A DNA stretch of 31,665 nucleotides from Gemmataceae bacterium (GTDB taxonomy: Bacteria > Planctomycetota > Planctomycetia > Gemmatales > Gemmataceae): positions 1 to 31,665 of the forward strand of contig DASPXY010000347.1 in NCBI GenBank assembly GCA_035637055.1, read 5' to 3'. Shown one piece after another: positions 3 to 25,519 of the stretch (the first letter of the stretch is position 1; every line of letters starts with the position of its first letter). The notes beneath the pieces were generated by a model. The model was not told where the DNA came from and did no database searches. It saw nothing but the letters and a program-made list of their open reading frames with translations. A program made the translations under genes and the position numbers.

Positions 3-212
3 GGACGCGACTTTCTGGATGAGGTCGAACGGGCCCTGGCGGAAATCACCGCTAACCCAGCCCGATTCGGTTTTGCCGATGCCGACATCCGCGAAGGCCC
101 TTTGACCCGGTTCCCCTACGCGGTCTACTACCGGGTGCTCGCGGATCGCATCCGGGTGCTCGCGGTGTTCCACACCTCTCGCGACCCTGCAGGGTGGCAG
201 TCGCGGAGTTGA
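3..212 (+). CDS. RelE/ParE-family toxin, C-terminal part (5' truncated by the window edge)
   Basis: My translation from position 3 gives GRDFLDEVERALAEITANPARFGFADADIREGPLTRFPYAVYYRVLADRIRVLAVFHTSRDPAGWQSRS*, with TGA at 210-212. The RFPYxxYY...IRVLAVFHxSRDP pattern is typical of ParE/RelE plasmid-stabilisation toxins. Not in the ORF track because the start lies outside the window. Confidence 0.85.
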   Translation, partial: GRDFLDEVERALAEITANPARFGFADADIREGPLTRFPYAVYYRVLADRIRVLAVFHTSRDPAGWQSRS

Positions 213-347
213 TGAGCGCCTCATCATCGAACACTCTCCTCCCGTAAGGGTAGCCCTCGCTTGGCAGCCCACAACACTTTCTGTAATGGATCGGCCGCCG
301 GCGCATCGTGCTTCTACTGAGCCGCACCACGGACCGAGGGCGGTGTT

Positions 348-878
348 GTGGGACGCGATCCTCGTCGCGAGATCGAGCAACTCTTCCGCGCGCACGGCAA
401 GGGTGTGGGCAGCTATGTCCTTGCGCGCGTCGGCGACCCGGAGCTTGCCGAGGAGATCACGTCCCGCGTCTTCCTGACCGTCGTGCGGTGTTATCACCAG
501 CAGCGCGGCTCGGTGCTGGGCTGGCTATGGGCCATTGTCCGCAGCGAGGTGGCCCGCTATTTCCGTGACCGGCGACCGCAAATATCGCCCTCTGAGGATT
601 TGCCGGCGCCGCTGGAACTGCCGCCCGACGAACTCGCCCGGCGCGAACTGCACGACTGCTTGCGAACGGCAATGGGCAAGCTGTCGGAGGAACAACAGCA
701 ACTACTGGGCCTGAAGTTCTTCCTGAACCTGCGCAACCAGGAGATCGCGGAGGCCACTGGGCTGACGCCCTCGAACGTCGGCGTCAAACTGCACCGGGCC
801 TTGCGCGAACTGCGCGAACTCCTCAACGGGCCGGCGTCGGTCCACTTTCCCCAATCCACTCAAGGCGACATGCCATGA
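348..878 (+). CDS. ECF-type sigma-70 RNA polymerase sigma factor
   Basis: GTG start with GAGGG 7 nt upstream. Region 2 pattern (AEEITSRVFLTVVR...WLWAIVRSEVARYFR) and region 4 HTH (LSEEQQQLLGLKFF...QEIAEATGLTPSNVGVKLHRA). Confidence 0.92.
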   Translation: MGRDPRREIEQLFRAHGKGVGSYVLARVGDPELAEEITSRVFLTVVRCYHQQRGSVLGWLWAIVRSEVARYFRDRRPQISPSEDLPAPLELPPDELARRELHDCLRTAMGKLSEEQQQLLGLKFFLNLRNQEIAEATGLTPSNVGVKLHRALRELRELLNGPASVHFPQSTQGDMP

Positions 879-1258
879 ACGAACAACCAGCAAACAATCT
901 GACCGAAGGCTGGCCGCCCGACCCGCACAACGAGGACCTGGCCCGATTCGCCGGCGAACTGCACGCAGCGCTTCCGGAGATGGCGCTCGGGTCGCTCGCG
1001 AACGTCGAGCAGAGGCTTCACGAGGAACTGACACGGCAAAGGCGCCGGGGTCGGCTGGCCCGCCTGGCGTTGGCGGCCTCGGTGCTGCTGGCGCTGGGCA
1101 TCGGCGGCTATGCCTGGTTGCGACCGACCACCGCGGAGCGCCAACCGCGGCCAGTCGATGAACGCTTCACCGTCGAGTTGGCGGCGCCGCAGACACCGCT
1201 GCCGTCCCAGCCGCCGCTCGTGCGGTTGGAGGAACATCAGAGCTTGTTCGCGGATTGA
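875..1258 (+). CDS. Putative single-TM anti-sigma factor
   Basis: ATGA overlap with the sigma stop (875-878). Cytoplasmic N-terminus, Arg-rich stop-transfer (RQRRRGR), one TM (LARLALAASVLLALGIGGYAWL) and a short Pro-rich C-terminus. Function is inferred from position and topology. Confidence 0.7.
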   Translation: MNEQPANNLTEGWPPDPHNEDLARFAGELHAALPEMALGSLANVEQRLHEELTRQRRRGRLARLALAASVLLALGIGGYAWLRPTTAERQPRPVDERFTVELAAPQTPLPSQPPLVRLEEHQSLFAD

Positions 1259-1265
1259 CAAGAAC

Positions 1266-1308
1266 TCCTCGTTGAGCCGCGGTTCGGAGAACCGCGGCTC
1301 AACGAGGA
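1266..1308. repeat. Perfect 20-bp inverted repeat (REP-like hairpin)
   Basis: TCCTCGTTGAGCCGCGGTTC (1266-1285), loop GGA, GAACCGCGGCTCAACGAGGA (1289-1308). It lies between the anti-sigma stop and the macroglobulin start. Confidence 0.9.
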
Positions 1309-1340
1309 CGGAATCGACGCACGCTTCCAACGGGTGTACC

Positions 1341-4300
1341 ATGTTGCGCGTTCACGTCCAGATAGCCGGGGTCATCGTGCTGGCGTTCGCTTGCCGTGTC
1401 CAGGGACAGCAAACGCCCGCGAAGATCGATACGCCTCTCGCTCAGGCGCAGCGCCTGGCGGAACAGAAGCCCAGCGCCGCGCACTGGCTGGGACTGGCCG
1501 AACTGAGGCGGGCCGCCGGTCAGCGGCAGGAGGCGCTTGCCGATCTCGCCCGCGCCCTCAAGGCGGCGAAGGCGGACGCCGGGCTGCGCGCCACGGAATT
1601 GCAAGAACTGCTCTGCTGGCGCATGCTGCCGGTGCCGGAGCCGCAGCGAGCCCAGTTCCGCCAGGAAATTGCCAGGCTGCGCGCGGCAGGGCAAAGCAGC
1701 CTTTGGCTACCTGTCTACGAGCTTTATCAGGCAATCCTGGAACGCGATCGGGGCGCTCTGCTGACCGCCGCGGCGCGCATGCCGGCACGCTTGCCGCAGC
1801 GGTTCCCTGGCGCTGCCGGCGAATCGGCTCAACTGGATCTGCTGCACGAACTCGGGGAGCAGCGCAATCATGCTGCCGTGCGGGTGCTGAGCGGGCGCTC
1901 CTACGAGCCGCTGCACGCCCTGCGCGACCTCGACCGCGGCCTGACGCGCGAGGCCGACTTCCTGCGCGGCCAGGGTGAGGCGCGCGCCAGTCAGGCGCTC
2001 CTCGCCGTCCGCGATCGGCTGCGGCAGGCGTACCTCGCATCCGCCCGCCACGTGATCGAACGGCTGTTCGTGCTGCGTCTGCTCGACCGCCGCCAGGAAC
2101 GCGACGCCCTGCTCGCTCGGGTCAAGGCCATCCCCTATTTGACGGATCGCGAAAAGCTCATTCAGCTGTTCGATCAGCTCGACGAGGAGCGCGCCTGGAC
2201 CGTGCTGCTGGAGCCGCTGCTGGCCAGCGAGGTCGCCGTGGTCAACGCCCCGGCCGACCTGGCCGGCGCCCGCGCCAGGCCCACCGCGGACCTGCACATT
2301 CAGGCCAACCTCAAGAGCGTCCAGGGCGAAAGCACCACGTACCAGGGAGCGGTGCGCGTCACTCTTGGAGCGCTGGCGGTGCGGTGCGAACTGCTGACGC
2401 TGGTGCGACCGGAGAAGCAGTCGGGGGTAATGCTGACGGGCACGGGCGGCGTGCGCGTCGAGGGCGTGCCGCGGCACACCATCATTCGGGCCGATCGCTT
2501 CAGCTTCAGCTCGGACACCGGCGGGTTCACCTTCGGCGGCGATGTCCGCCTCGAACAACCGGGCAGTACCTGGAAGTTGCGGGCTTGCAGTGTGACGCGC
2601 ACTGGCGAGGTGCGCGAGCAGCAGAGCCTGCTCGACGATTTCCGCACCGCCCCCGATGCGACGGCGAAGCTGGCACTGCTGCCGCAACTCGCCCGCGTCT
2701 ACGAGGACAATGAACTCCCCGCCGAGGCCCGTTACTTGCTTGCCCTCTATCTGCTGCGGCCACATCTCATCTGGCACGCGCCCTATCTCACACCTGCGGA
2801 ACGCGAGCGCGATCGGGAGGACGTCGCCAGGGAAAAGCACCGCGCTGGCGACGCCTGGCAGGAGGCGATGGGCGGCGAAGAGTGGATGCACGGCGACATT
2901 CCCGAGGCGACCCGTCAAGAAGTCCGGCAAGCGCTGGCCCGCTGGCAGGAAGCCCATGCCGGCAAGGGCGAGCGCCTGCTCAAGATACCGCCGGTGAGCG
3001 CGTACTTCTGGCGGCTGCGGGAGCCAAGCCACCAGGAACTGCCGCGCGTGCGGCGGTTGCTGGAGGGAGTGCGCGGCGACCTGGAAAGCCATGCTCGCCG
3101 CTGGCTGGCCGAGATCGAGCGCAACAACACCGTTCTCACCTGCGACATCCCCGGCGGCGGCGCTGCGGGCAAACCCTTCCCGGTGGTCATGGACGTCCGC
3201 AACGCCGACCGCGTCGCCTTCATGCTCTACCGCATCGAACGGCCGGAGGATCTGCTTTGGGTGACAAATCGGATCGGCGATGACTTCATTTATCGCGATC
3301 ACGGGTTGCAGTACCCCGGCTGGGAGCGCGAACGGATCAAGGTGCTGGAAGAGCGTGACGCCATGGCCGTCGGCAAACGAGGCGCCGCCGCCGGGGAGCA
3401 AATGCCGCTGACAGCATTCCGCCCTGAGAAACTGGTCCATCGATGGGACGTGCGGGTGGCGGATCTGAAGGTGCTGCCCGCAAGCCCACGGGTAGCTACC
3501 CGTGGGCTTGACCGGCATGACTGGGGGGATCGTGAGGACGCCGATGCATGGTATTTTGACGACTATTGCGATCGCTTCAGGGAGCGACTCGAAGGACGCT
3601 ATCGACCGCGTCCGGGACAGTTCAGCTCCTGGCAGTGCGGCCGCATCGTCGAGGTTCCCGGCAAGGCGCTGGCCCAGCCCGGCGCTTACGTTCTGCTCGC
3701 CGAGAGCAACGGGCAGAAGGCGTATGTGCCGGTCGTGATCGATCCGCTCAGCCTGACGCTGCGCCGCTGCCGCGATGGCCTGTTCGCGCTCGTCAGCGAC
3801 GGCGACGGCTTGAAACCCGTGGCCGGGGCGCGCATCCTCGGCAAGCGCATGCTCGGCGAAGCGGTCACCGATGCCGAAGGCGCCACGTTTGCCCGCATCT
3901 TCGCCGCGGGGAATCGGGCCATTGTGGCTCATCACGAGGGGCGTTTCGCCGTCGGTGGTTTCGGCCGTGTGTTCGACGGGATCTACGTCTCGCCACTGGA
4001 TATGGCCCTGGATCGGCTCTACGGCCTCATGAAGCGGGGCGAGCGCGGCGACGCGAAGCATACCGAAGAACTCCGCGTCTATGCGGATCGTCACGTCCTG
4101 GCGGCGTACACGGATCGTCCCACCTATCGCCCTGGTCAGGAGGTCCAGTTCAAGCTGATCGTCCGCCGCCTCGCACCAGAGGCGGTCCTCGTCGCCGACG
4201 GCAAGCCGCGCCCCTTCCGGGCCGACGATTTCGACATCCCGGTCAAGCTCGCTCTCCCTGATACGACTAAACCGCTCCCTTATGTCGTACTTGACCCCAA

Positions 4301-7300
4301 TGGCCGTGGGGTAGCCGCTGGCACGCTGACGCTGAGCGAGTTCGGCACGGCCGCGGCGCAGGTGGCCCTCAACGACGAGGCGGCCCTCGGGCCTTACTCG
4401 CTGCGCGTTTGGGTCGCCGGCAGTAATCGCGTCGTGCCTGCCGTCTTCGCCGTCAAGCATTACCGGCGGCCCAGCTTCGAGGTCGATGTCGCAGGCGTCC
4501 CCGCGAAGTTGACGCAGGTGCGCGACCTGACCCTCGACGTCTGCGGCCGCTACTACTTCGGCAAACCCGTCGCGGGCGGCACCCTGCACGCGCAGCTGCT
4601 GACCGCGGATCGCTGGCGGTCCGTCACGGAGGCGGAGTGCAGGCTCGATGAAAAGGGCACCGCACGCCTGAAACTGAAACTCCCCGCTCATCTCTCCGCC
4701 GGGCACTATCGCGTCATCTGCAGCGTCACCGACGACAGCGACCGTACGGTTACCAAGGCCCTGCCGCTGGAGATTGTGTCCGCGGCGAGCACTGCCGGCC
4801 CCGAGTTGGCCGCCGTCCCGCGTTTTCTGCCGGCAGGTGGCGAACTGCTCGTCAAAACCGCGGCAAAGGAAATCGTGGTTGAGCAGGACAAGACCGTTAT
4901 GCGGTTCGGCGCGATCCGTGGGGCTGCGACGCTCAAGTTCCCCGTGCCAGGCTGGTATCGCCTCCGAGTCGGCGCGCAGCAGGCGGAGGTGTTTGCCTAC
5001 GGCGGCGACAAGCATCCGCTCGACCTGCGGTCCAGCCAAGATCCGGACAAGCACGAGCATCCCTGGGCTCGGCACGTCGGTTGGGTCAACCTGAGCGATT
5101 ACCACTGGCAGGAATCCGGCAGGCCCTCCCGCTGCGAGAACGCGGCCCAGCAGTTGCTCGCCCTGTTCGATCGCCACCAGGTCGCCGTCGGCGACAAATT
5201 GCGCCTGCTGGTGTATGTGCCGCACGAACGCGCTCGTCTCCTCTTCACCGCCGAGGGGCGAACGGTCCTCGACTATCTCGTGACGTGGACACCGAAGGAA
5301 AAGGGTCGCTATCACGTCGTTGAGATTCCGATAAAAGCGAGGCATTTCCCCGCTTTTTATCTCCAGGGGCGGATCCTCGCCGGGGAGGGGCCAACCGGAC
5401 AATCGCACCCCGAGGTTCTGGAGGCGAGGGAGCAACTGCTGCGTAGGTACGACGAGGATGACGGCGTCAATCCACTCTGGTGCCGGGTGGACGTGCTCGA
5501 CCCGAAGCGCAAGCCCGGCGAGGCACCGTTGCACGTGCAGGTCGAGACAGAGCGCGGCGAGTTCCGTCCCGGCGACCGCGTCAACGTGCGGTTGAAGGTG
5601 ACCGACCGGCAAGGGATGCCGCGGCGGGCCGAGGTGTCGTTCGCGGCCGTCGATGAGAGCGTCTACACGTTCGGCGAGGACAATCTTGCGGGGCTGGCAG
5701 GCTTCTTCGGCACGCCGCACGAGACGCCGCGCTTCCTGCCGAAAGCGTGGCGCAGCAGTGTCGGCAACAAGTGGCGGGCCGGGGCGGGGAAAGGCGGGGC
5801 GGGGCAACTCCAGGACATGGCGAAGATGGCCCAGGCGGCTCAGCGGGAGATGCGTCAGGCGATCGACAAGGCTGTCAAACAACTGGAGGCTTCCCAGGCT
5901 GATCGGATCGATGCCCCCCGTGCCCTGCCGCCGGCCATGCTCGGCGGCGAGTTGCCTGTTGGCGGCATCCCGCTGGGACGGCTGCGTCAGGACTTCCGCG
6001 AAACCGCGAGCTGGCAGCCCTTGCTCCGTACCGGCGCCGACGGCAGCGCCGAAACCTCGTTCAAGTTGCCCGATTCGCTGACGTGCTACCGCCTGACCGC
6101 GGTGGCTCTGACCAAAGACAGCGAGGTCGGCGTCGGCCGGGCACGTCTCCGCGTCACTCTGCCGCTGGCGGTCCAGCTCATGTTGCCGCGTTTTGCGGTC
6201 GAAAAAGACCGTTTATTCGCCGTGGCGCTGATCCACAACGGCACCGACCGCGAGCGCATCTGTCAAATCCACTTCGCGGGCCAGGGGGCGAAGTTCGACC
6301 GCGCCAGCGCTGCCCTGCGTGACTGGAAGGCGACTGAGGAAGACGGCAAGGTCAGCGGCCGCGGGGTCGTCACGGTGCCGGCGCAGGGGACGGCCCGCGT
6401 CGGCGTCTGGCTGAAGCTGGATCAGATCGGCCCCGTGACGCTGACGTGTCGTGCCGCCGCCGACGAGTTGTCTGACGGCGAAACGCGCACGCTCACGGTG
6501 CAGCCGCGTGGCCGTCCGCAGGAGGTGATCGCCAACGGTGCGCTGCCGCAAGTTCCGGGCAAGCCACAGGAGAAACGCATCGACCTGCCGGCCGGTTTCG
6601 TGGCGCGCGACCTGCGCATCAGCCTGGCGTCGAGCGAGGAGGCCCAGGCCCTTGATGGACTGGAGTACCTGATCGGCTACCCCTACGGCTGCATCGAGCA
6701 GACGATGAGCCGTTTCCTGCCGGCGGTGATGGTCGCCCACGCAGCGCGACAGGCTTCGCTCGAATTGCCATCGCAGGTCGAGGCGAAACTGCCCGATGTG
6801 CTGGCGAAGGGTTTGGCGCGCGTTTATGGCTTCCAGCACGCGGACGGCAGTTGGGGCTGGTTCGACAAGGACGATCGCAACGACCCGATGACGGTCTACG
6901 TCGTTTACGGGCTGGCCCGCTGCCGGACGACGGGCACGCCCGTAGATCGGGAGGTGCTAGATCGCGGTTGTAGCTATCTGCGCGCCCAGCTGCGCGGCCG
7001 CAAGCTGTCCTCCGATCTCGCCGCCCGCGCCTGGTACGCCCTGACCCTGGCCGAGCGTGCCGATGTCAAGGAACTGGAGGCGGATGTGCGGCAGCGCTGG
7101 GCGGAACTCTCTCCCGAAGGGCGCTGCAACTTCGCGCTCGCCTGTCGCACTGCCGGTTTGCATGAGTTGGGCGAGCGTCTCTGGGCTGCAGTCCGCACCT
7201 GGCAGCCGTCCGGCGCCGAGCAGAGTGCCCTGTTTCTGAATACGCAGATCGCTTATGGCGCCAGTTGGGACGATTGCCGGCGCAGTTCGCGGCAGCTGTT

Positions 7301-8024
7301 GTCGCTGCGCTCAGGGGATCGCTGGGAGCACACGCGGGCCACCTCCTGGGCCATTGAGGCTCTGGGGCAGATGCTCGCTTACCTGCCCGAGCGCAGCGCC
7401 GTTCGCCGCCTCCAGGTGCGCGTTGGCGGCCGAACGGTGCTCGACCTGACCGAACCCGCCGACCTGAGCAAACGGGTCTACCGCGTCCATCTGCCCGCGC
7501 AGCACCTCCCCACGCGCGAAGGGCTCGACATCCGCCTGATTGCCGAGTCCCCGGAACAGGTCCACTTCGCGCTACGGGCCGAGGGTGTCCAGCGTCTGGA
7601 TGAGATAAGGCCGAGCGGCTCGCGCCTCAAAATCCTGCGGCACCTGGAGACGCTCGACGGCAAACCGCTGACGGAAGCCGTCGCAGCCGGGCAGGTTTTC
7701 CGCGTCCGCCTGGAACTGGAACTGGCGCAGGCCGAGAACTACCTCATCATCGAGGATCGCCGCCCCGCCGGGTGCGAGTTCGCTGACGAGCGCCTCGAAG
7801 GCGAGGCGGCCCGCGGTGCCGCGCACGTGGACTGGCGCGACGATCGCGTGTGCATCTTCCGCACGAGCCTGAGCGCCGGGCGGCACGAACTGGTCTATTA
7901 TCTCCGTGCCGAGACGCCCGGAGTTAGTCAGGTGTTGCCGGGATGTGTCTATCCAATGTACGCGGACACGAACCGCGGCGAAACAGGCTCGGCGCGCGTG
8001 CAGGTGAACGAGCGCGGGCCGTGA
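1341..8024 (+). CDS. Bacterial alpha-2-macroglobulin (MG2, A2M, thioester and C-terminal domains) with a long N-terminal extension, about 2227 aa
   Basis: MG2 motif YTDRPTYRPGQEVQFK; MG3 YRRPSFEVDV; A2M motif LRQDFRETASWQPLLRTGADGSAETSFKLPDSLTCYRLTAVA; thioester PYGCIEQ (CIEQ at 6690-6701); C-terminal YYLRAETPG...PMY. Start moved to ATG 1341 because it gives a signal-peptide-like MLRVHVQIAGVIVLAFACRVQG and avoids overlapping the anti-sigma gene. Confidence 0.92.
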   Translation: MLRVHVQIAGVIVLAFACRVQGQQTPAKIDTPLAQAQRLAEQKPSAAHWLGLAELRRAAGQRQEALADLARALKAAKADAGLRATELQELLCWRMLPVPEPQRAQFRQEIARLRAAGQSSLWLPVYELYQAILERDRGALLTAAARMPARLPQRFPGAAGESAQLDLLHELGEQRNHAAVRVLSGRSYEPLHALRDLDRGLTREADFLRGQGEARASQALLAVRDRLRQAYLASARHVIERLFVLRLLDRRQERDALLARVKAIPYLTDREKLIQLFDQLDEERAWTVLLEPLLASEVAVVNAPADLAGARARPTADLHIQANLKSVQGESTTYQGAVRVTLGALAVRCELLTLVRPEKQSGVMLTGTGGVRVEGVPRHTIIRADRFSFSSDTGGFTFGGDVRLEQPGSTWKLRACSVTRTGEVREQQSLLDDFRTAPDATAKLALLPQLARVYEDNELPAEARYLLALYLLRPHLIWHAPYLTPAERERDREDVAREKHRAGDAWQEAMGGEEWMHGDIPEATRQEVRQALARWQEAHAGKGERLLKIPPVSAYFWRLREPSHQELPRVRRLLEGVRGDLESHARRWLAEIERNNTVLTCDIPGGGAAGKPFPVVMDVRNADRVAFMLYRIERPEDLLWVTNRIGDDFIYRDHGLQYPGWERERIKVLEERDAMAVGKRGAAAGEQMPLTAFRPEKLVHRWDVRVADLKVLPASPRVATRGLDRHDWGDREDADAWYFDDYCDRFRERLEGRYRPRPGQFSSWQCGRIVEVPGKALAQPGAYVLLAESNGQKAYVPVVIDPLSLTLRRCRDGLFALVSDGDGLKPVAGARILGKRMLGEAVTDAEGATFARIFAAGNRAIVAHHEGRFAVGGFGRVFDGIYVSPLDMALDRLYGLMKRGERGDAKHTEELRVYADRHVLAAYTDRPTYRPGQEVQFKLIVRRLAPEAVLVADGKPRPFRADDFDIPVKLALPDTTKPLPYVVLDPNGRGVAAGTLTLSEFGTAAAQVALNDEAALGPYSLRVWVAGSNRVVPAVFAVKHYRRPSFEVDVAGVPAKLTQVRDLTLDVCGRYYFGKPVAGGTLHAQLLTADRWRSVTEAECRLDEKGTARLKLKLPAHLSAGHYRVICSVTDDSDRTVTKALPLEIVSAASTAGPELAAVPRFLPAGGELLVKTAAKEIVVEQDKTVMRFGAIRGAATLKFPVPGWYRLRVGAQQAEVFAYGGDKHPLDLRSSQDPDKHEHPWARHVGWVNLSDYHWQESGRPSRCENAAQQLLALFDRHQVAVGDKLRLLVYVPHERARLLFTAEGRTVLDYLVTWTPKEKGRYHVVEIPIKARHFPAFYLQGRILAGEGPTGQSHPEVLEAREQLLRRYDEDDGVNPLWCRVDVLDPKRKPGEAPLHVQVETERGEFRPGDRVNVRLKVTDRQGMPRRAEVSFAAVDESVYTFGEDNLAGLAGFFGTPHETPRFLPKAWRSSVGNKWRAGAGKGGAGQLQDMAKMAQAAQREMRQAIDKAVKQLEASQADRIDAPRALPPAMLGGELPVGGIPLGRLRQDFRETASWQPLLRTGADGSAETSFKLPDSLTCYRLTAVALTKDSEVGVGRARLRVTLPLAVQLMLPRFAVEKDRLFAVALIHNGTDRERICQIHFAGQGAKFDRASAALRDWKATEEDGKVSGRGVVTVPAQGTARVGVWLKLDQIGPVTLTCRAAADELSDGETRTLTVQPRGRPQEVIANGALPQVPGKPQEKRIDLPAGFVARDLRISLASSEEAQALDGLEYLIGYPYGCIEQTMSRFLPAVMVAHAARQASLELPSQVEAKLPDVLAKGLARVYGFQHADGSWGWFDKDDRNDPMTVYVVYGLARCRTTGTPVDREVLDRGCSYLRAQLRGRKLSSDLAARAWYALTLAERADVKELEADVRQRWAELSPEGRCNFALACRTAGLHELGERLWAAVRTWQPSGAEQSALFLNTQIAYGASWDDCRRSSRQLLSLRSGDRWEHTRATSWAIEALGQMLAYLPERSAVRRLQVRVGGRTVLDLTEPADLSKRVYRVHLPAQHLPTREGLDIRLIAESPEQVHFALRAEGVQRLDEIRPSGSRLKILRHLETLDGKPLTEAVAAGQVFRVRLELELAQAENYLIIEDRRPAGCEFADERLEGEAARGAAHVDWRDDRVCIFRTSLSAGRHELVYYLRAETPGVSQVLPGCVYPMYADTNRGETGSARVQVNERGP

Positions 8025-8158
8025 AGTGGTATCCCCGACGGACGGTGCCGGGATCTGTTTGACAAGCAGCGATTGGTCGATTATCTCTAGACTAACTTGC
8101 GGTGATGCCGCATGGGGGTGCTCTCGAAGGTAGTTTCAATTCCAAAGGGGAAAGAGCG

Positions 8159-8305
8159 ATGCTGGCAACCTGTATGACCCTGCTGGCGAATGGGGATGTG
8201 ATGAGCGGCGCCCTGCGCGGGGCCTTGATCGGCGGGGCCGTCGGCGCGGTGGTCGGCCTGGTCATCTGGCTCGTTCGCAAAGGGCAAGGCGGCGACAAGT
8301 CCTGA
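8159..8305 (+). CDS. Small (48 aa) membrane protein with GxxxG glycine-zipper-like segment
   Basis: Purine-rich RBS-like AAAGGGGAAAGAG precedes ATG 8159. MLATCMTLLANGDVMSGALRGALIGGAVGAVVGLVIWLVRKGQGGDKS has a hydrophobic helix followed by RK. Confidence 0.6.
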   Translation: MLATCMTLLANGDVMSGALRGALIGGAVGAVVGLVIWLVRKGQGGDKS

Positions 8306-8446
8306 TGGTGTCGTTCGCTGTTGTGACGGTGCGAAAACTTCGGGAGGCCAGGTCTAGCTTCGTGCTTTGCACGGTGGGCGGCGTTGCGCCGCCCGAGCGT
8401 TTGGCTCTCCATACGCCAGAGGGAAGGCTGTTTCAGGCCCGCGGCA

Positions 8447-8536
8447 GATGATCAGGTGACGAGGTGACCAGGTGACCAGGTGAAAGGGAGTTACGCCGGT
8501 CACCTGGTCACCGTGTCACCCTGTCACCTTGTCATC
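8447..8536. repeat. Fold-back of 8-bp tandem repeats (GGTGACNA left, NNGTCACC right)
   Basis: Left units GGTGACGA, GGTGACCA, GGTGACCA, GGTGA (8455-8483). Right units GGTCACC, TGGTCACC, GTGTCACC, CTGTCACC, TTGTCATC (8498-8536). Confidence 0.85.
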
Positions 8537-8597
8537 CGCAAGGGCCCGAGAGCCTTCCTCCTCCCAGGTCGTGCAGTAGACGCTCCCGAAGTGCAAC

Positions 8598-8627
8598 CGG
8601 GCTGCCCGGAGGATTCCGGGCAGCCCG
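8598..8627. terminator. GC-rich 13-bp hairpin, probable (possibly bidirectional) terminator
   Basis: CGGGCTGCCCGGA, loop GGAT, TCCGGGCAGCCCG. It lies about 25 nt past the stop of the minus-strand gene at 8652, between convergent genes. The U-tract is weak. Confidence 0.55.
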
Positions 8628-8651
8628 TGCTGTTTCAGGCGGCCAGAAACA

Positions 8652-9050
8652 TTAGAGTTTCTCCAAGTAAGCCAGAACCTCCGCAGTGGTGTACGTCCTC
8701 CCCTTGTCTTCCATTCGGCGCTGCAACTCTTCCTTGCTGATCTGAGGTTCCAAGTTCTCGTACTGCGATTTGTCGAAGGGCGGCCAGAAGTACCCCAACA
8801 CTCGGCCGGTCTCATCGCAAAGATCCACAGGCCCAAAGGGTATGTGAAGTTTGCTGGCCATTGCCGCATCGACGACGATCCTGGCGTCATCCTCTTCCGG
8901 TTTGGTGGAGGATGCGTTTTGTTGCCCCGATTTGTTAAGGGGTGGCGAAAAGTCCCCCAACAGCTGGCCGACTTCGCTGTACACTTTCGCATGGCCAGGA
9001 CGATTTTGGAATTTGCTGGCCATCGCCCCATCGACAACGATCCTGGTCAT
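8652..9050 (-). CDS. Antitoxin-like hypothetical protein with a duplicated N-terminal module; paralog of 29197-29439
   Basis: AAGGAG RBS 6 nt before ATG. Two repeats, TRIVVDGAMASKF...GQLLGDFSPP and ARIVVDAAMASKL...GRVLGYFWPP. C-terminal EPQISKEEL...YTTAEVLAYLEKL aligns with SPEVTEEEL...YTTEEVLAHLKTL of the 29.3-kb antitoxin. Confidence 0.75.
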   Translation of the reverse strand: MTRIVVDGAMASKFQNRPGHAKVYSEVGQLLGDFSPPLNKSGQQNASSTKPEEDDARIVVDAAMASKLHIPFGPVDLCDETGRVLGYFWPPFDKSQYENLEPQISKEELQRRMEDKGRTYTTAEVLAYLEKL

Positions 9051-11479: not shown

Positions 11480-14416
11480 ATGGACAACCTGCAGACCGTG
11501 ATGGGCCTGACGTTCTTCCCGCAGCAATGGTGCGCGGTGACCGCCCCGGTTGGCCCCGTGCTGGTGCTGGCTGGCCCAGGCGCCGGCAAGACACGCTGTC
11601 TGACCGGCCGCATCGGTTACCTTCTCGCCCATCACAACGCCGATCCGCAGCGCATTTGCGCCATCACCTTCACCAACAAGGCCGCGCAGGAAATCGCCGA
11701 CCGTCTGCGACACGGCCTCGGCGACCTCGTCGAAGCGCTGAAGCTGGGCACGATCCACGCCCTTTGCCTGGAATTCCTCCGCGAGCATGGCCGCCGTCTC
11801 GGTCTGCCGAGCGGCTTCGGGGTGGCCGACGACGAACATCAGCGCCTCGTGCTGGCGCGGCTGGGCGTACCGTCGAAGCGACACGGTCAACTCCTGCTCC
11901 TCTTCGGCCGTCGCCGCTTGCAGGGACACACGCTCAGCCAGCAAGACGAGGCCCTGTTTGGCCGCTACCAGCGCGAGTTGCGCTCCAACCATCTCATCGA
12001 CTTCGACGAGATTTTGCAGCTGACCCACCTCCTCTTGCGGGACACCCCGGCGATCCTCGACGGCTACCGCGGCCGCTGGGATCATGTCCTTATCGACGAG
12101 TGCCAGGATCTCGACGCGACGCAGTACGCCATCCTGAAACTCCTGGCCGACAGTCACCGCAGCCTGTTCGCCGTCGGCGATGACGAGCAGTCGATTTTCT
12201 CCTGGCGCGGAGCCGATCCGAGGGTGCTGGCCCGCTTCGTGACGGACTTCGGCATCGATGAGCCGATCGTGCTCGACGTGAACTGCCGCTGCGCCCGAGG
12301 GATCTTCGACGCCGCTCGCCGCATCCTGCCGTCGGCCCAGCCGTTGTTTGAGAAAAAGATAACAGCGATCCGTGAATCATCATTTAACGTCCGGGCGATT
12401 GGCTTCGCCGACGAGACGGAGGAGGCTCCCTGGATCCTCGACGATCTGCGCCAGGAGATCGCGACTGGCCTGCGGCCCGGCGATTGTGCTGTCCTGTATC
12501 GCACCCACCAGGCCGGGCGGGTGTTCGAGGAGGCGCTGGTGGCTGCGGGCATTCCGTGCCGGCTGGCGCGCGGCCAGTCGCTCTCGGACGACAAGGTGAT
12601 CGCGCGGGTGTTGGCGGCGCTGCGGGTCGTCGCGAACCCCGACGCCGACCTGCACGTTGAAAGCCTCGCCGCCAAGGTTTTTTCCGAGCCGCTGTTGGCC
12701 GAGATCAAACGGCGGCCGGGCGCGACCTTTCTCGCGCGACTGCGGATCAACGCGGAACAGACGCACGGACCCGACGCCGGTCGCTGCTGGCGCTTCCTCT
12801 ATCAAGCGGAGAACCTCAAGGGACTGGGCCGATTGCAAGGCGATCTGCATGGCCTGGTGCAGGCGGTGCTGGCCCAGGGGATCGGCGAGTACGAGGGGCC
12901 GCTGGAGGCACGCCACGAACGCCTGGACGACCCCGAGGCGCTGCCGTCGGCGGTGGCCCTCGCCGAAACCCTGCTCGCCGTCGAGCAGCGACGCGGCCGC
13001 ATCCTCCTCGCTCCCGCTGGCGGGCTGGAGATCGTCGCCCGCGTGATGATCCGCAGCGTGTTGCGCGGCCTGACGGTGGAGCACCTCCGCGCAGCGGGAG
13101 CGGCATTGCCTGGCGACCGGGTCTTCTGGAAGCCCACAGGCCCCGGGCCATGGCCGTTCTCGCCGGGTGAGGAGCGACTGCAAAGCGTCGTCCTCATTAA
13201 GGCGCTGCAGATCATCGAGGGGCGGCGCTATCGCAAGGGGCTGACGGACTACGTCGTTTTCGACACCGAGACGACCGGCAAGGACGTCCAGCATGCCGAG
13301 GTGATCGAACTCGCCGCCGTGCGGGTGCGTGGCGGGCGCGTGGTGGATACGTTCCAGTCGCTGGTGTCGTGTACCAAGCCAATCCCGCCCGGAGCGACCG
13401 CGGTACACGGCTACACCGACGCCGACCTGCGCGGCCAGCCCGCACTTTCCGAGGTGTGGCCGCGATTCCGTGCGTTCGCCGGCGACGACGTCCTGGTGGT
13501 GCATAACGGGCGTCAGTACGACGTACCGCTGCTGGAGCGACTGACAGCTGGTTGGGGCGGCACCGAGGGGATGTTCTTCTTCGATACGCTGCCGCTCGCT
13601 CGGAGCCTCTTCCCCGCTGGCAGCCTGCGGCTCGTGGACCTGGCCGCGCGCTTCGGAGTCGATACCGGCCGCGGACATCACGCCCTCGACGACTCGCTGT
13701 GCCTGGTCGGCGTGTTCGAGCACTTGCAGGAGGAGCGGCTGCGGCGCTGGCGCAAGACGTGCCTGGCGGAGTTGCTGGACTGCGTCGCTCTCGGGGCGGC
13801 GATCGAGGGACGCACCGACCTGCACCCCGAAGATCAGGCCTTTGTCGAGGCGGCGCGCTGGAGCGAGCTGCGCCGTCCGCCGGCGGTCGTCGATGCCTAC
13901 ACCGAGGAGGCCGAACGCTTCGGATTGCACTGTCCCTCACTCGACGAGTTACTCGGGCGCATGGGCACCCCCGGATGGAAGGGCGGCCGCGGCGACCCGG
14001 CCGGACACGAGCGCCCCGCGGAGTCGCATGCGCGGCTGTCGCGTGTGGTGGCCCTCGTCAAGACGGCTCCGCTGGACGAGGCAGTGCGCGCCCTGCTCGA
14101 CAAGGTCGCCCTGTCCACGTCGGAGGGAGCAAGCGTCGATCCGGAGCGCGTAAGTCTCCTGACCTTCCACTCGACGAAGGGGCTGGAGTTCGGCCGCGTC
14201 TACATTGTCGGAGTCGAGGATTTCCAGCTGCCGGGTTACTACGCGATGACGGAGAAGCGCGCCGAGGACATCCACGAGGCACGGCGGCTGCTCTACGTGG
14301 CGATGACGCGGGCGAAGGATCGGCTGACGCTGACCTGGTGCAAGGAGCGCGCCGGCAAGCCGACTGGCGGCACGATGTTCCTCGACGAGATGGGCCTGAC
14401 GCAGGGAAAGGCGTGA
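11480..14416 (+). CDS. UvrD/PcrA-type SF1A helicase with an inserted DEDDh 3'-5' exonuclease domain
   Basis: Helicase motifs GPGAGKT, ITFTNKAA, IDECQD, VGDDEQSIFSWRGA, TFHSTKGLEF and EARRLLYVAMTRAK. Exonuclease motifs FDTETTG, HNGRQYD and HHALDD at about 13250-13726. Confidence 0.92.
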   Translation: MDNLQTVMGLTFFPQQWCAVTAPVGPVLVLAGPGAGKTRCLTGRIGYLLAHHNADPQRICAITFTNKAAQEIADRLRHGLGDLVEALKLGTIHALCLEFLREHGRRLGLPSGFGVADDEHQRLVLARLGVPSKRHGQLLLLFGRRRLQGHTLSQQDEALFGRYQRELRSNHLIDFDEILQLTHLLLRDTPAILDGYRGRWDHVLIDECQDLDATQYAILKLLADSHRSLFAVGDDEQSIFSWRGADPRVLARFVTDFGIDEPIVLDVNCRCARGIFDAARRILPSAQPLFEKKITAIRESSFNVRAIGFADETEEAPWILDDLRQEIATGLRPGDCAVLYRTHQAGRVFEEALVAAGIPCRLARGQSLSDDKVIARVLAALRVVANPDADLHVESLAAKVFSEPLLAEIKRRPGATFLARLRINAEQTHGPDAGRCWRFLYQAENLKGLGRLQGDLHGLVQAVLAQGIGEYEGPLEARHERLDDPEALPSAVALAETLLAVEQRRGRILLAPAGGLEIVARVMIRSVLRGLTVEHLRAAGAALPGDRVFWKPTGPGPWPFSPGEERLQSVVLIKALQIIEGRRYRKGLTDYVVFDTETTGKDVQHAEVIELAAVRVRGGRVVDTFQSLVSCTKPIPPGATAVHGYTDADLRGQPALSEVWPRFRAFAGDDVLVVHNGRQYDVPLLERLTAGWGGTEGMFFFDTLPLARSLFPAGSLRLVDLAARFGVDTGRGHHALDDSLCLVGVFEHLQEERLRRWRKTCLAELLDCVALGAAIEGRTDLHPEDQAFVEAARWSELRRPPAVVDAYTEEAERFGLHCPSLDELLGRMGTPGWKGGRGDPAGHERPAESHARLSRVVALVKTAPLDEAVRALLDKVALSTSEGASVDPERVSLLTFHSTKGLEFGRVYIVGVEDFQLPGYYAMTEKRAEDIHEARRLLYVAMTRAKDRLTLTWCKERAGKPTGGTMFLDEMGLTQGKA

Positions 14417-23676: not shown

Positions 23677-24627
23677 ACCCCCAGACAGCGCGAGGAGGCG
23701 CTTCACCGCCGCGGACAGCCGCGGGTGACGCACCGACAGCCGATGGAAGTGCCTGGCGATACCCAGCGCCACCGGCCCCAGACGACGCACTTCTTCCAGT
23801 TCGCGCGCCTGTTCCGCCAACTCTACCCGCGTCTCGGCAAGGGCCTGCCGTGCCGCTTCCAGCTCCGCAGCGAAGTATCCCAGCCCCGGCAAAGCCCAGG
23901 TGAGGTCGCGCTCGTAGCCGCGCGCGATCAGCCACTTGCCGCAGATCCCGGCGAGCACGGCCAGTTCGCGTGGAGTTGCCTGCGCGCGCCAGCTGCCGCT
24001 TCGTCCGTCGCGAATGTGGTTCCAGTGCAGCAGGGTCTTCTCATCCCAGCGGTGGGCGTTGGTCGGCGCTTCCAGGTCCACCCCCTGCTCGTGTAAGTGC
24101 GCGGTGAATTCCGCGGTGCGGCGCCGGGTCGCCTCCAGCGAATACTCGCCCACAACCGCCTCCGCTGCGCCATTGTCCAGATGCATGCCGAGGTGAGCGG
24201 CGAGCACCACAACGGCGGCGGCAGGTGCGGCCATGATCTCCTCGTAGCGCTGCGAGAGTGTGTGCGGTTGGTCGGCCCAGAAGGCGTCGTTGGCCAAACA
24301 GAGATGAAGGAGGTCTTTTCGCTCCACTACGTCCTCGAAGGACGCGCCATTCTTATGCATCAGCGAGTAGGCGACGTCACGCAGGTCGCGGTAGGCGTAG
24401 ACGGCGAGCGCGCGGCCCTCCGCCAGCGCCGCAGCGAAGGCAGGGTGTTTGTCATGGGCCTTCAGCACGCGCCAGCGGGCCTCTTCCCCACGGCTTTGAC
24501 TGGCGTACTGCTCGCCAGTGAGGAATCCCAGGCGACTGCCGTCCAGGTGCCCTTCCACCAGATGGCTGACGACCTCGTATTGCCAGGTTGATCCCGCCCG
24601 GTACATGCCGACACAGAAAACATCCAT
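23674..24627 (-). CDS. Sulfotransferase-domain protein with C-terminal coiled coil
   Basis: N-terminal CVGMYRAGSTW (PAPS 5'-phosphosulfate loop), VLKAH, and YAYRDLRDVAYS (3'-phosphate binding). Confidence 0.78.
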   Translation of the reverse strand: MDVFCVGMYRAGSTWQYEVVSHLVEGHLDGSRLGFLTGEQYASQSRGEEARWRVLKAHDKHPAFAAALAEGRALAVYAYRDLRDVAYSLMHKNGASFEDVVERKDLLHLCLANDAFWADQPHTLSQRYEEIMAAPAAAVVVLAAHLGMHLDNGAAEAVVGEYSLEATRRRTAEFTAHLHEQGVDLEAPTNAHRWDEKTLLHWNHIRDGRSGSWRAQATPRELAVLAGICGKWLIARGYERDLTWALPGLGYFAAELEAARQALAETRVELAEQARELEEVRRLGPVALGIARHFHRLSVRHPRLSAAVKRLLALSGG

Positions 24628-24660
24628 GTCCGGTCTCCGACTTGACTTGCCTCACCCGGA

Positions 24661-25341
24661 TCAGGTCGAAATCTTCTCGTAATAGACGCCTACCCAACCC
24701 GGGAGACCCACTGGCTTGTACTCGCCCGCTTCCACAACGATGGCGCCGTCGCCGTCCTGGATGTGGAGCGGATCGAGAAGGTGTGGGGTAGTGCCGAGGC
24801 GGGCGGCTAGGGCTGCCATTGCCACTTCCAAGTTCCTGAAGCGGCGCCTGAACGCCCCGTAATCGAAATCGGGATCCTCCAGCAACTGACCCAGCAGGGA
24901 CGGCGGCTGTGGTGGCTTCAGAGGAGGTGAAAACTCCCCCAATGGGGCGGCCGCCCGCCAGGTCAGTGATTGGGCCTCTACTTGCTCCCCCTCCTTGAAG
25001 ATACTGTAGCCCGCGACATAGCCCGCATCGAAGGAGAACAGGTAGATGACTGGACTGAGGCTTCGGGACAAAGACATCGCCAGGGGGTTCGCCCGATACC
25101 AGGTCGGGAATGGACCTGGCAACCCATCCCCCCAGGACGAGAGCGGCACCCACCGGGACTGACCGGCTGGTCCAACGAAAATCATTTGCACCGAGCGATA
25201 GTGGAAGCCATCCGCATAGATCCTCGGTGCTTCGTGGTAGACGATCCGGCGACGGAGTCGGCCAAGGGCATCCTCAAGCGCCGTGAAGATCAGCGACTGT
25301 TCGACGGCCGGTACCAGGATGGTGTTGTAGCAAGCGCCCAT
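24661..25341 (-). CDS. Hypothetical protein (226 aa)
   Basis: ATG-started ORF that fills the gap between co-oriented genes, with normal composition and no motif I can name. Confidence 0.7.
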   Translation of the reverse strand: MGACYNTILVPAVEQSLIFTALEDALGRLRRRIVYHEAPRIYADGFHYRSVQMIFVGPAGQSRWVPLSSWGDGLPGPFPTWYRANPLAMSLSRSLSPVIYLFSFDAGYVAGYSIFKEGEQVEAQSLTWRAAAPLGEFSPPLKPPQPPSLLGQLLEDPDFDYGAFRRRFRNLEVAMAALAARLGTTPHLLDPLHIQDGDGAIVVEAGEYKPVGLPGWVGVYYEKIST

Positions 25342-25412
25342 ACGCTCAACTCTCCAGCTACTTCACGATGCATTATCGGGAACCAGCGCCGCGATGCAAT
25401 CCGAGTTGCTCT

Positions 25413-25450
25413 CCCCTCGCCTCGAATCCCTCTCCCGCATAGGGGAGAGA
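25413..25450. repeat. Degenerate half-copy of family A
   Basis: CCCCTCGCCTCGAATCCCTCTCCCGCATAGGGGAGAG resembles the family A arm CCCCTCCCCCCAACCCCCTCCCCGCAACGGAGAGGGG. Confidence 0.45.
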
Positions 25451-25496
25451 AACGAGGAACGCCGCCCGGATCTTGGCCCCGGACGGCGTTTCTCGT
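25445..25496 (-). terminator. Probable intrinsic terminator after the thioredoxin-like gene
   Basis: Imperfect 16-bp stem ACGAGGAACGCCGCCC / GGACGGCGTTTCTCGT. On the minus strand it is followed by TTCTCT and lies 24 nt after the stop at 25520. Confidence 0.5.
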
Positions 25497-25519
25497 GTTC
25501 CAACCAACTGCGGTGAGGA

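Follow-up and report, generated by a model that had tools for sequence, protein, structure and literature searches.

What is a fold known from lipopolysaccharide (LPS) transport doing inside a bacterial protease trap? This question is raised by a locus of a Gemmataceae bacterium (GCA_035637055.1), the source being a fragmented metagenome-assembled genome (MAG) of 1,783 contigs and 82% completeness. The window analyzed here, that is, the whole stretch of 31,665 nucleotides at positions 1-31,665 of contig DASPXY010000347.1, contains on the plus strand, like the promoter and all genes of the window described below, an open reading frame (ORF; 1110-8024) encoding a large alpha-2-macroglobulin (A2M). 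A first-pass annotation of the window proposed that the segment 2286-2615 is a β-jellyroll of the OstA/LptA type fused into this A2M, that the architecture may be undescribed, and that the domain could bind lipid or dock the trap on the Lpt bridge. The segment is in frame with the ORF, with the translation quoted there. The evidence presented below confirms the fold, shows that the domain travels with a sigma factor of the extracytoplasmic function (ECF) type and a single-transmembrane (TM) protein encoded just upstream, and suggests that it may dock the A2M on the latter.

Taken alone, the segment matches only LptA-type models, and these weakly: PF03968 at E = 0.0023 with 18.6 bits, below the cut-off of 20.4, and TIGR03002 at E = 0.0037 with 17 bits, the cut-off of this LptA equivalog being 71.7. 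All 8 of its sequence matches in the PDB are LptA. With homologues included the resemblance is clear: PF03968 is matched by 23 of the 29 aligned homologous jellyrolls at E≤0.1 (best 1.4e-8), stand-alone relatives of the jellyroll score above the PF03968 cut-off, and the family profile has eight PDB matches below E 1e-4, all of them LptA chains (E. coli, Klebsiella and Acinetobacter-type, E 1e-6 to 3e-5) that cover the domain end to end. Feature matches in the ESM Atlas are to LptD_N at 0.93. As the single-sequence fold of the segment was unusable (predicted local distance difference test score, pLDDT, of 38), an alignment-based AlphaFold2 (AF2) model of residues 100-720 was adopted (pLDDT 87.7), which comprises a helical domain, an all-β domain at residues 395-505 and a second helical domain. 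All 22 Foldseek matches of this model at E≤1e-3 are LptA, LptH, LptC or LptD, and the VIA comparison with E. coli LptA (2r1a) gives Z 16.5 and a root-mean-square deviation of 2.1 Å over 116 residues, unrelated rows lying near Z 8. The jellyroll is modeled as a twisted β-taco superposable on LptA. Profiles and models together thus confirm the predicted LptA-type β-jellyroll at residues 393-503 (2286..2618) of the A2M, as the first-pass annotation had proposed, and the segment is not an immunoglobulin-like macroglobulin (MG) domain.

The inward-facing positions of the jellyroll are 97-100% hydrophobic, including the equivalents of LptA I36, I38, F54 and Y114. A disulfide between the conserved, inward-facing C426 and C493 is not claimed; these residues belong to non-adjacent repeats and are lost singly in two homologues (P0043 and P0053). 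Although the domain has the LptA fold, it is not an LptA: its 17 bits fall far short of the equivalog cut-off of 71.7, and it lies inside an A2M instead of standing alone in the periplasm. In a jellyroll tree built by a quick method from 116 columns, the jellyrolls of the A2M family form their own branch, apart from the true LptA-like proteins, at a weak Shimodaira-Hasegawa-like approximate likelihood ratio (SH-aLRT) support of 83; this tree is poorly resolved and the order of the fusion events is not readable from it. PF03968 and PF04453 have no match in the source genome, a result to be read in light of its incompleteness and of the fact that the window's own domain was missed in the same scan.

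The protein that carries this domain has the marks of a thioester (type I) bacterial A2M. Residue numbers used here follow the 2,304-residue ORF; homologues begin at the Met encoded at 1341, the probable true start, from which the protein is about 2,227 residues long and opens with a probable Sec signal peptide that contains no lipobox (1341..1406). The N-terminal, all-helical domain of the AF2 model resembles a tetratricopeptide repeat (TPR) fold (helixN, residues 108-387, 1431..2270), and the jellyroll is followed by the second helical domain with a first MG-like region (2625..4079), which is a mark of the subfamily and is found with or without the preceding two domains. The canonical bacterial A2M body occupies 4104..8024, with the Pfam domains MG2, MG3, A2M_BRD (the bait-region domain), A2M, TED (the thioester domain) and bMG10 all falling in the C-terminal 1,300 residues of the ORF. 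Within it lie a variable bait (about 5727-5984), the CIEQ thioester motif in TED (6690-6701, of the form CxEQ) and, in bMG10, the RDDR and YPMY motifs, the latter matching xxMY. Among full-length members the thioester C[IV]EQ is present in 38/38 and RDD[RK] in 37/38, and a lipobox was found in none of the 38. The body is accordingly that of a thioester bacterial A2M, a putative protease trap. HelixN matches no Pfam family, its structure matches are to generic TPR only (VIA Z about 8) and its recognition in the Atlas is low, which leaves its family insecure; the motifs LHALRDLD, HVIERLF and PYL are conserved in it.

The fusion is not confined to the window. Searching with residues 100-680 brought up 30 large A2Ms, among them two with names from Planctomycetota (Gemmataceae and a "Planctomycetes bacterium") and one auto-named LptA. 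At least 52 proteins share the order helixN, jellyroll, A2M, and they come from many independent assemblies. The module formed by helixN and the jellyroll is nevertheless rare, being present in 9/267 genomes of the order, with no other match at a strong E-value among 400 genomes sampled from the phylum. Distant, module-less A2M-like genes of 21-35% identity were observed on six other contigs of the source genome (G000; C91, C286, C1476, C137, C880 and C437).

In its unit the A2M gene comes third, after the genes for an ECF sigma factor of 176 residues (348..878; Sigma70_r2 and r4_2; TIGR02937 at E 8.9e-20, over the cut-off) and for a 127-residue, single-TM anti-sigma-like protein (875..1258), the latter coupled to the ECF gene by an ATGA overlap. 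A Pfam scan of the TM protein gave no match; it consists of a cytoplasmic helical N-domain, a hydropathic TM stretch preceded by basic residues (about 1064-1120) and a periplasmic tail with two motifs, a strand motif V-x-D-x-[FY]-x-[VL] (about 1148-1195) and a helix motif P-L-V-x-L-x-E-[YH] (about 1208-1255). As in ECF systems with a membrane anti-sigma, a factor with both sigma2 and sigma4 regions shares a transcript with a single-TM protein whose helical N-domain is cytoplasmic. Among module-bearing loci whose flank is long enough, the ECF and TM genes immediately precede the A2M in 12/12 (the window, L001, L003, L004, L005, L019, L030, L031, L032, L035, L036 and L040; L033, which ends too early, and the rearranged L037 are excluded); among readable module-less loci of the same subfamily they do so in 0/5. 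A weak anti-sigma match at a further locus (L060) was set aside as belonging to a different ECF/anti-sigma pair. In L030 and L031 the A2M gene is frameshifted, in L030 the ECF gene as well, by assembly error or decay; in L037 (5657-7221) the N-terminal part of the ECF abuts the last portion of helixN, which looks like a deletion of the remaining ECF gene, the TM gene and most of helixN.

A putative ECF-type promoter, TGTAAT-N15-G[GC][AC]TC, lies at 282..307 of the window, and in 11 A2M loci the ECF start is preceded by this motif at a distance of 59-70 nt. TGTAAT occurs in 11/13 upstream regions, whereas none of 2,000 shuffles gave more than 4, kin among these regions not being independent. 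Such a motif upstream of the ECF gene is as expected of an autoregulated ECF promoter, and no sigma-70 promoter was found within 200-8700 of the window. Scanning the genome with the promoter matrix ranked the own locus first, as a member of the training set, and otherwise gave no convincing sites; therefore, no wider regulon is readable.

How closely the jellyroll is associated with the ECF/TM pair is seen from the natural variants of the unit, which came to light in a profile search of 1.8 billion representatives and in domain mapping. Fusions of the TM protein with helixN and the jellyroll (520-548 residues) lack an A2M and stand right behind the ECF gene in L008, L020 and L039, the last of which has no A2M or lpt gene within 10 kb; still shorter fusions of the TM protein with the jellyroll only (212-252 residues, 8 proteins) likewise lack the A2M. 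Named members of both types are from Tepidisphaeraceae and are annotated as "LptA/OstA family protein", and the N-terminus of the fusions is homologous over the full length to the TM protein of the window (hhalign 98.5%, E 1.8e-15). In L021 the TM gene is separate from a stand-alone helixN-jellyroll gene, and in a further variant, membrane or secreted proteins of 400-750 residues, the jellyroll is joined to MG1 and the second helical domain, in one case also to an alpha/beta-hydrolase, and the other parts of the A2M are missing (P0074, P0075, P0079, P0081, P0085 and, in L018, P0157). The hydrolase forms the C-terminus of P0074, and in L012 an alpha/beta-hydrolase gene follows the TM-jellyroll gene. 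Among 74 full-length A2Ms of the subfamily, 52 have both helixN and the jellyroll and 22 have neither. Two proteins of a third fusion type, P0220 and P0221, have the cytoplasmic domain and TM helix of the TM protein joined directly to the A2M (hhalign 97.4% with the window TM protein), the module and the tail both missing. A tree built from the A2M/TED region shows several switches between presence and absence of the module, at least 2-3 of them forced by strong branches. The TM protein is homologous across the three fusion types, and the module and the tail motifs are gained and lost together. The jellyroll thus goes with the ECF/TM pair and can be dispensed with by an A2M that is unlinked to an ECF or covalently joined to the TM protein.

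The distribution of the tail motifs is more specific still. The helix motif is present in 19/22 separate TM proteins and 4/4 TM-helixN-jellyroll fusions and absent from the TM-jellyroll (0/8) and TM-A2M (0/2) fusions; the strand motif is present in 21/22, 4/4 and 7/8 (by regular expression, one misplaced), respectively, and in 0/2 TM-A2M fusions. From this pattern a pairing of strand with jellyroll and of helix with helixN was expected before any complex was modeled. A model of the tail (residues 82-127 of the TM protein, 46 in all) with the module (A2M residues 105-506) scored 0.87, compared to 0.16 for the best of three controls, the mark of the test being reached by 58/80 solved complexes and 2/110 mismatched pairs; the runs share at least 85% of contacts, with partner pLDDT of at least 68. 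Predicted error is lowest between tail residues 115-125 and three invariant motifs of helixN (LHALRDLD, HVIERLF and PYL), and no solved counterpart of these contacts was found. The interface also lists tail residues 92-107, the first strand of the jellyroll (residues 389-402) and Y411, the equivalent of LptA F54, from which the tail strand is predicted to pair with that first strand and Y411. In LptA itself, LptC, thanatin and the next LptA molecule all attach to the corresponding strand, and F54 forms part of the wall of the cavity that takes up thanatin (PMC6235536). The predicted interface agrees with the assignment made beforehand from the motifs, and the tail of the TM protein is accordingly predicted to bind the helixN-jellyroll module.

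We favor, with moderate confidence, the reading that the jellyroll is a co-opted LptA fold that docks the A2M on the tail of the anti-sigma-like TM protein and so couples the trap to an ECF circuit. HelixN and the jellyroll would form one module that grips the periplasmic tail of the co-transcribed TM protein, the tail strand extending the first β-strand of the jellyroll, as LptC and thanatin do on LptA, and the last tail motif seating in helixN. Docking would tether the lipobox-less thioester A2M to the inner membrane and make it the outside partner of the ECF/anti-sigma pair. Under an envelope challenge, perhaps a protease cutting the bait or the tail or a ligand that competes for the edge of the jellyroll, the tail would come free or become exposed; the presumed anti-sigma would be lost, possibly by regulated proteolysis, and the freed ECF would induce the operon from its own promoter. 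That the A2M, docked by its LptA-like jellyroll on the anti-sigma, might itself be the receptor of a transmembrane signaling system and make an attack by proteases, or its own transition on trapping, known to the ECF is a more tentative proposal, which we consider rather doubtful.

Several observations weigh against the docking reading. The match of the TM protein to the anti-sigma model NF052375 (E 4.6e-5, 23.5 bits) is below its cut-off of 100. The locus counts include kin, and the module-less loci may amount to three lineages. In the divergent loci L039 and L040 the promoter motif was not found. The two halves of a split gene will generally pass such a complex test, and where the tail strand lies on the jellyroll edge, the predicted interface resembles the solved LptA-thanatin and LptA-LptA complexes and may reproduce them. 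Finally, no A2M-less fusion has lost the jellyroll, which is the only outside domain common to all of them; as these fusions need no tethering, the domain probably does more than dock.

What more it could do is addressed by an alternative in which the unit is a sensor of lipid or LPS, similar to RseB: the groove would bind mislocalized lipid, which would displace the tail strand and trigger the ECF, while the A2M would be mainly an output of induction, only incidentally joined to the sensor. This explanation is compatible with docking and differs in what is sensed. The retention of the jellyroll in all A2M-less fusions, the hydrophobic inward positions of the domain and the predicted tail contact with Y411, the counterpart of F54 in the thanatin cavity (PMC6235536), are in favor of this alternative, and the release of RseB from RseA has been proposed to be caused by LPS (PMC8103513). 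On the other hand, the fold itself demands a hydrophobic interior, P0220 and P0221 retain the anti-sigma-like domain and the A2M without the jellyroll, and the neighborhood shows no conservation of LPS genes: only in L001 is the unit flanked, at about 7 kb on either side, by lpxK and a KDO (3-deoxy-D-manno-octulosonate)-transferase-like gene (2262-3389 and 24170-25513). This alternative is the main rival of docking, although we regard it as unlikely. Less likely still is that the TM protein is simply a membrane anchor of the A2M and no anti-sigma, with the ECF merely driving the operon. The missing lipobox, the existence of direct TM-A2M fusions and the sub-threshold anti-sigma match would all fit this explanation; it leaves unaccounted for the conserved cytoplasmic helical domain and the ATGA coupling to the ECF gene, and in the two-gene units of an ECF and a fused TM-jellyroll protein there is nothing to anchor.

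The suggestion made in the first-pass annotation, that the domain joins the bridge of LptC, LptA and LptD, to carry LPS or to site the trap at outer-membrane assembly, fares worse and appears very improbable. It could draw on the true LptA fold (Z 16.5) and on the A2M-less fusions, whose topology of a TM helix and a periplasmic jellyroll resembles LptC and in which the C-terminal edge is free. In the A2M, however, the N-terminal edge that would receive LptC is predicted to be occupied by the tail, and the far, C-terminal edge is continuous with the second helical domain in the AF2 model. No lpt gene is found beside any locus examined, the lptF/G match of the source genome being on another contig (C1437), the sparse occurrence in the order and phylum is unlike that of an essential Lpt part, and the equivalog score and the separate, weakly supported branch in the jellyroll tree point the same way. 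An assembly chimera or chance resemblance, at which the fragmented MAG and the single-sequence Pfam score below the cut-off might hint, is refuted to the point of being negligible, since 52 relatives from independent assemblies have the fusion in the same domain order and profile and structure agree.

Other features of the window touch the unit less directly. Between the TM gene and the A2M start lies a 20-bp inverted repeat (1266-1308), of which related copies are found on 41 contigs; it is therefore regarded as a dispersed element similar to repetitive extragenic palindromes and outside the system. A second dispersed palindromic repeat downstream of the A2M (8455-8630) has matches on 75 contigs, and the best of these are about 120-130 bp long and 97-99% identical. 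The ECF promoter is closely preceded, at the contig end, by the C-terminal part of a toxin gene of the ParE/RelE toxin-antitoxin type (3-209; PF05016 E 1.4e-5), and downstream of the A2M are a gene for a 48-residue glycine-zipper membrane peptide (8159-8305; weak Pfam matches below the cut-off) and one for a UvrD/REP helicase with an inserted RNase T-type exonuclease domain at residues 592-745 (11480-14416).

The unit resembles several known systems and coincides with none of them. With E. coli ECAM/YfhM, which is anchored in the inner membrane, and Salmonella SaA2M (PMC4498604), the window A2M shares the MG, bait, TED and C-terminal MG domains as well as CxEQ, RDDR and xxMY; in contrast to them, it lacks a lipobox and an adjacent pbpC, has about 600 additional N-terminal residues (helixN, the jellyroll and the second helical domain) and is encoded behind an ECF and a TM gene. 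No pbpC was found beside any examined locus, and PF06832 had no match in the source genome, which is 82% complete. On these sequence features, the absence of a lipobox and of pbpC, the window A2M is placed outside the YfhM subtype. With LptA, LptC and the N-domain of LptD (PF03968; PDB 2r1a and 4uu4) the jellyroll shares the fold, the hydrophobic interior and the predicted strand addition at the first strand, but here it is embedded in an A2M of 2,200 residues or in a TM regulator, outside any lpt context, sparsely distributed and far below the LptA equivalog cut-off. RseB, the periplasmic partner in the envelope-stress pathway, has a LolA-like fold. The parallel with RpoE-RseA-RseB (MucA/MucB type; PMC8103513) is that of an ECF, a single-TM anti-sigma or anti-sigma-like protein and a periplasmic partner with a lipid-carrier fold that binds, here by prediction, the periplasmic part of the single-TM protein, all in one operon, from which a parallel mode of working may be supposed; the partner here has an LptA fold and a TPR-like domain fused to a thioester trap, and no sequence relation was tested or found.

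The open-access literature has yielded no description of an A2M with an OstA/LptA domain, of a link between A2M and an ECF factor, or of an anti-sigma domain with the LptA fold; the architecture is real, conserved and apparently undescribed, as the first-pass annotation had supposed. That annotation is partly supported: the fold is borne out, docking on the Lpt bridge is not supported, and the co-occurrence of the domain with an ECF/anti-sigma pair was not connected in it. To our knowledge, descriptions of the LptA jellyroll are limited to LPS transport, and those of bacterial A2Ms to passive traps with a lipoprotein anchor. The locus family points to a rewiring of both, in which an anti-sigma tail may now dock on the LptC-binding edge of the jellyroll and a protease trap may have been coupled to a sigma factor of its own. 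The Tepidisphaeraceae proteins annotated as members of the LptA/OstA family are probably regulators and not LPS carriers. With its three genes, one predicted promoter and a tail of 46 residues whose interface is predicted, the system is minimal and open to direct test, and its natural deletion and fusion variants are ready-made controls. Should the A2M indeed prove to be a receptor for protease attack, bacteria would own an inducible, protease-sensing defence circuit.
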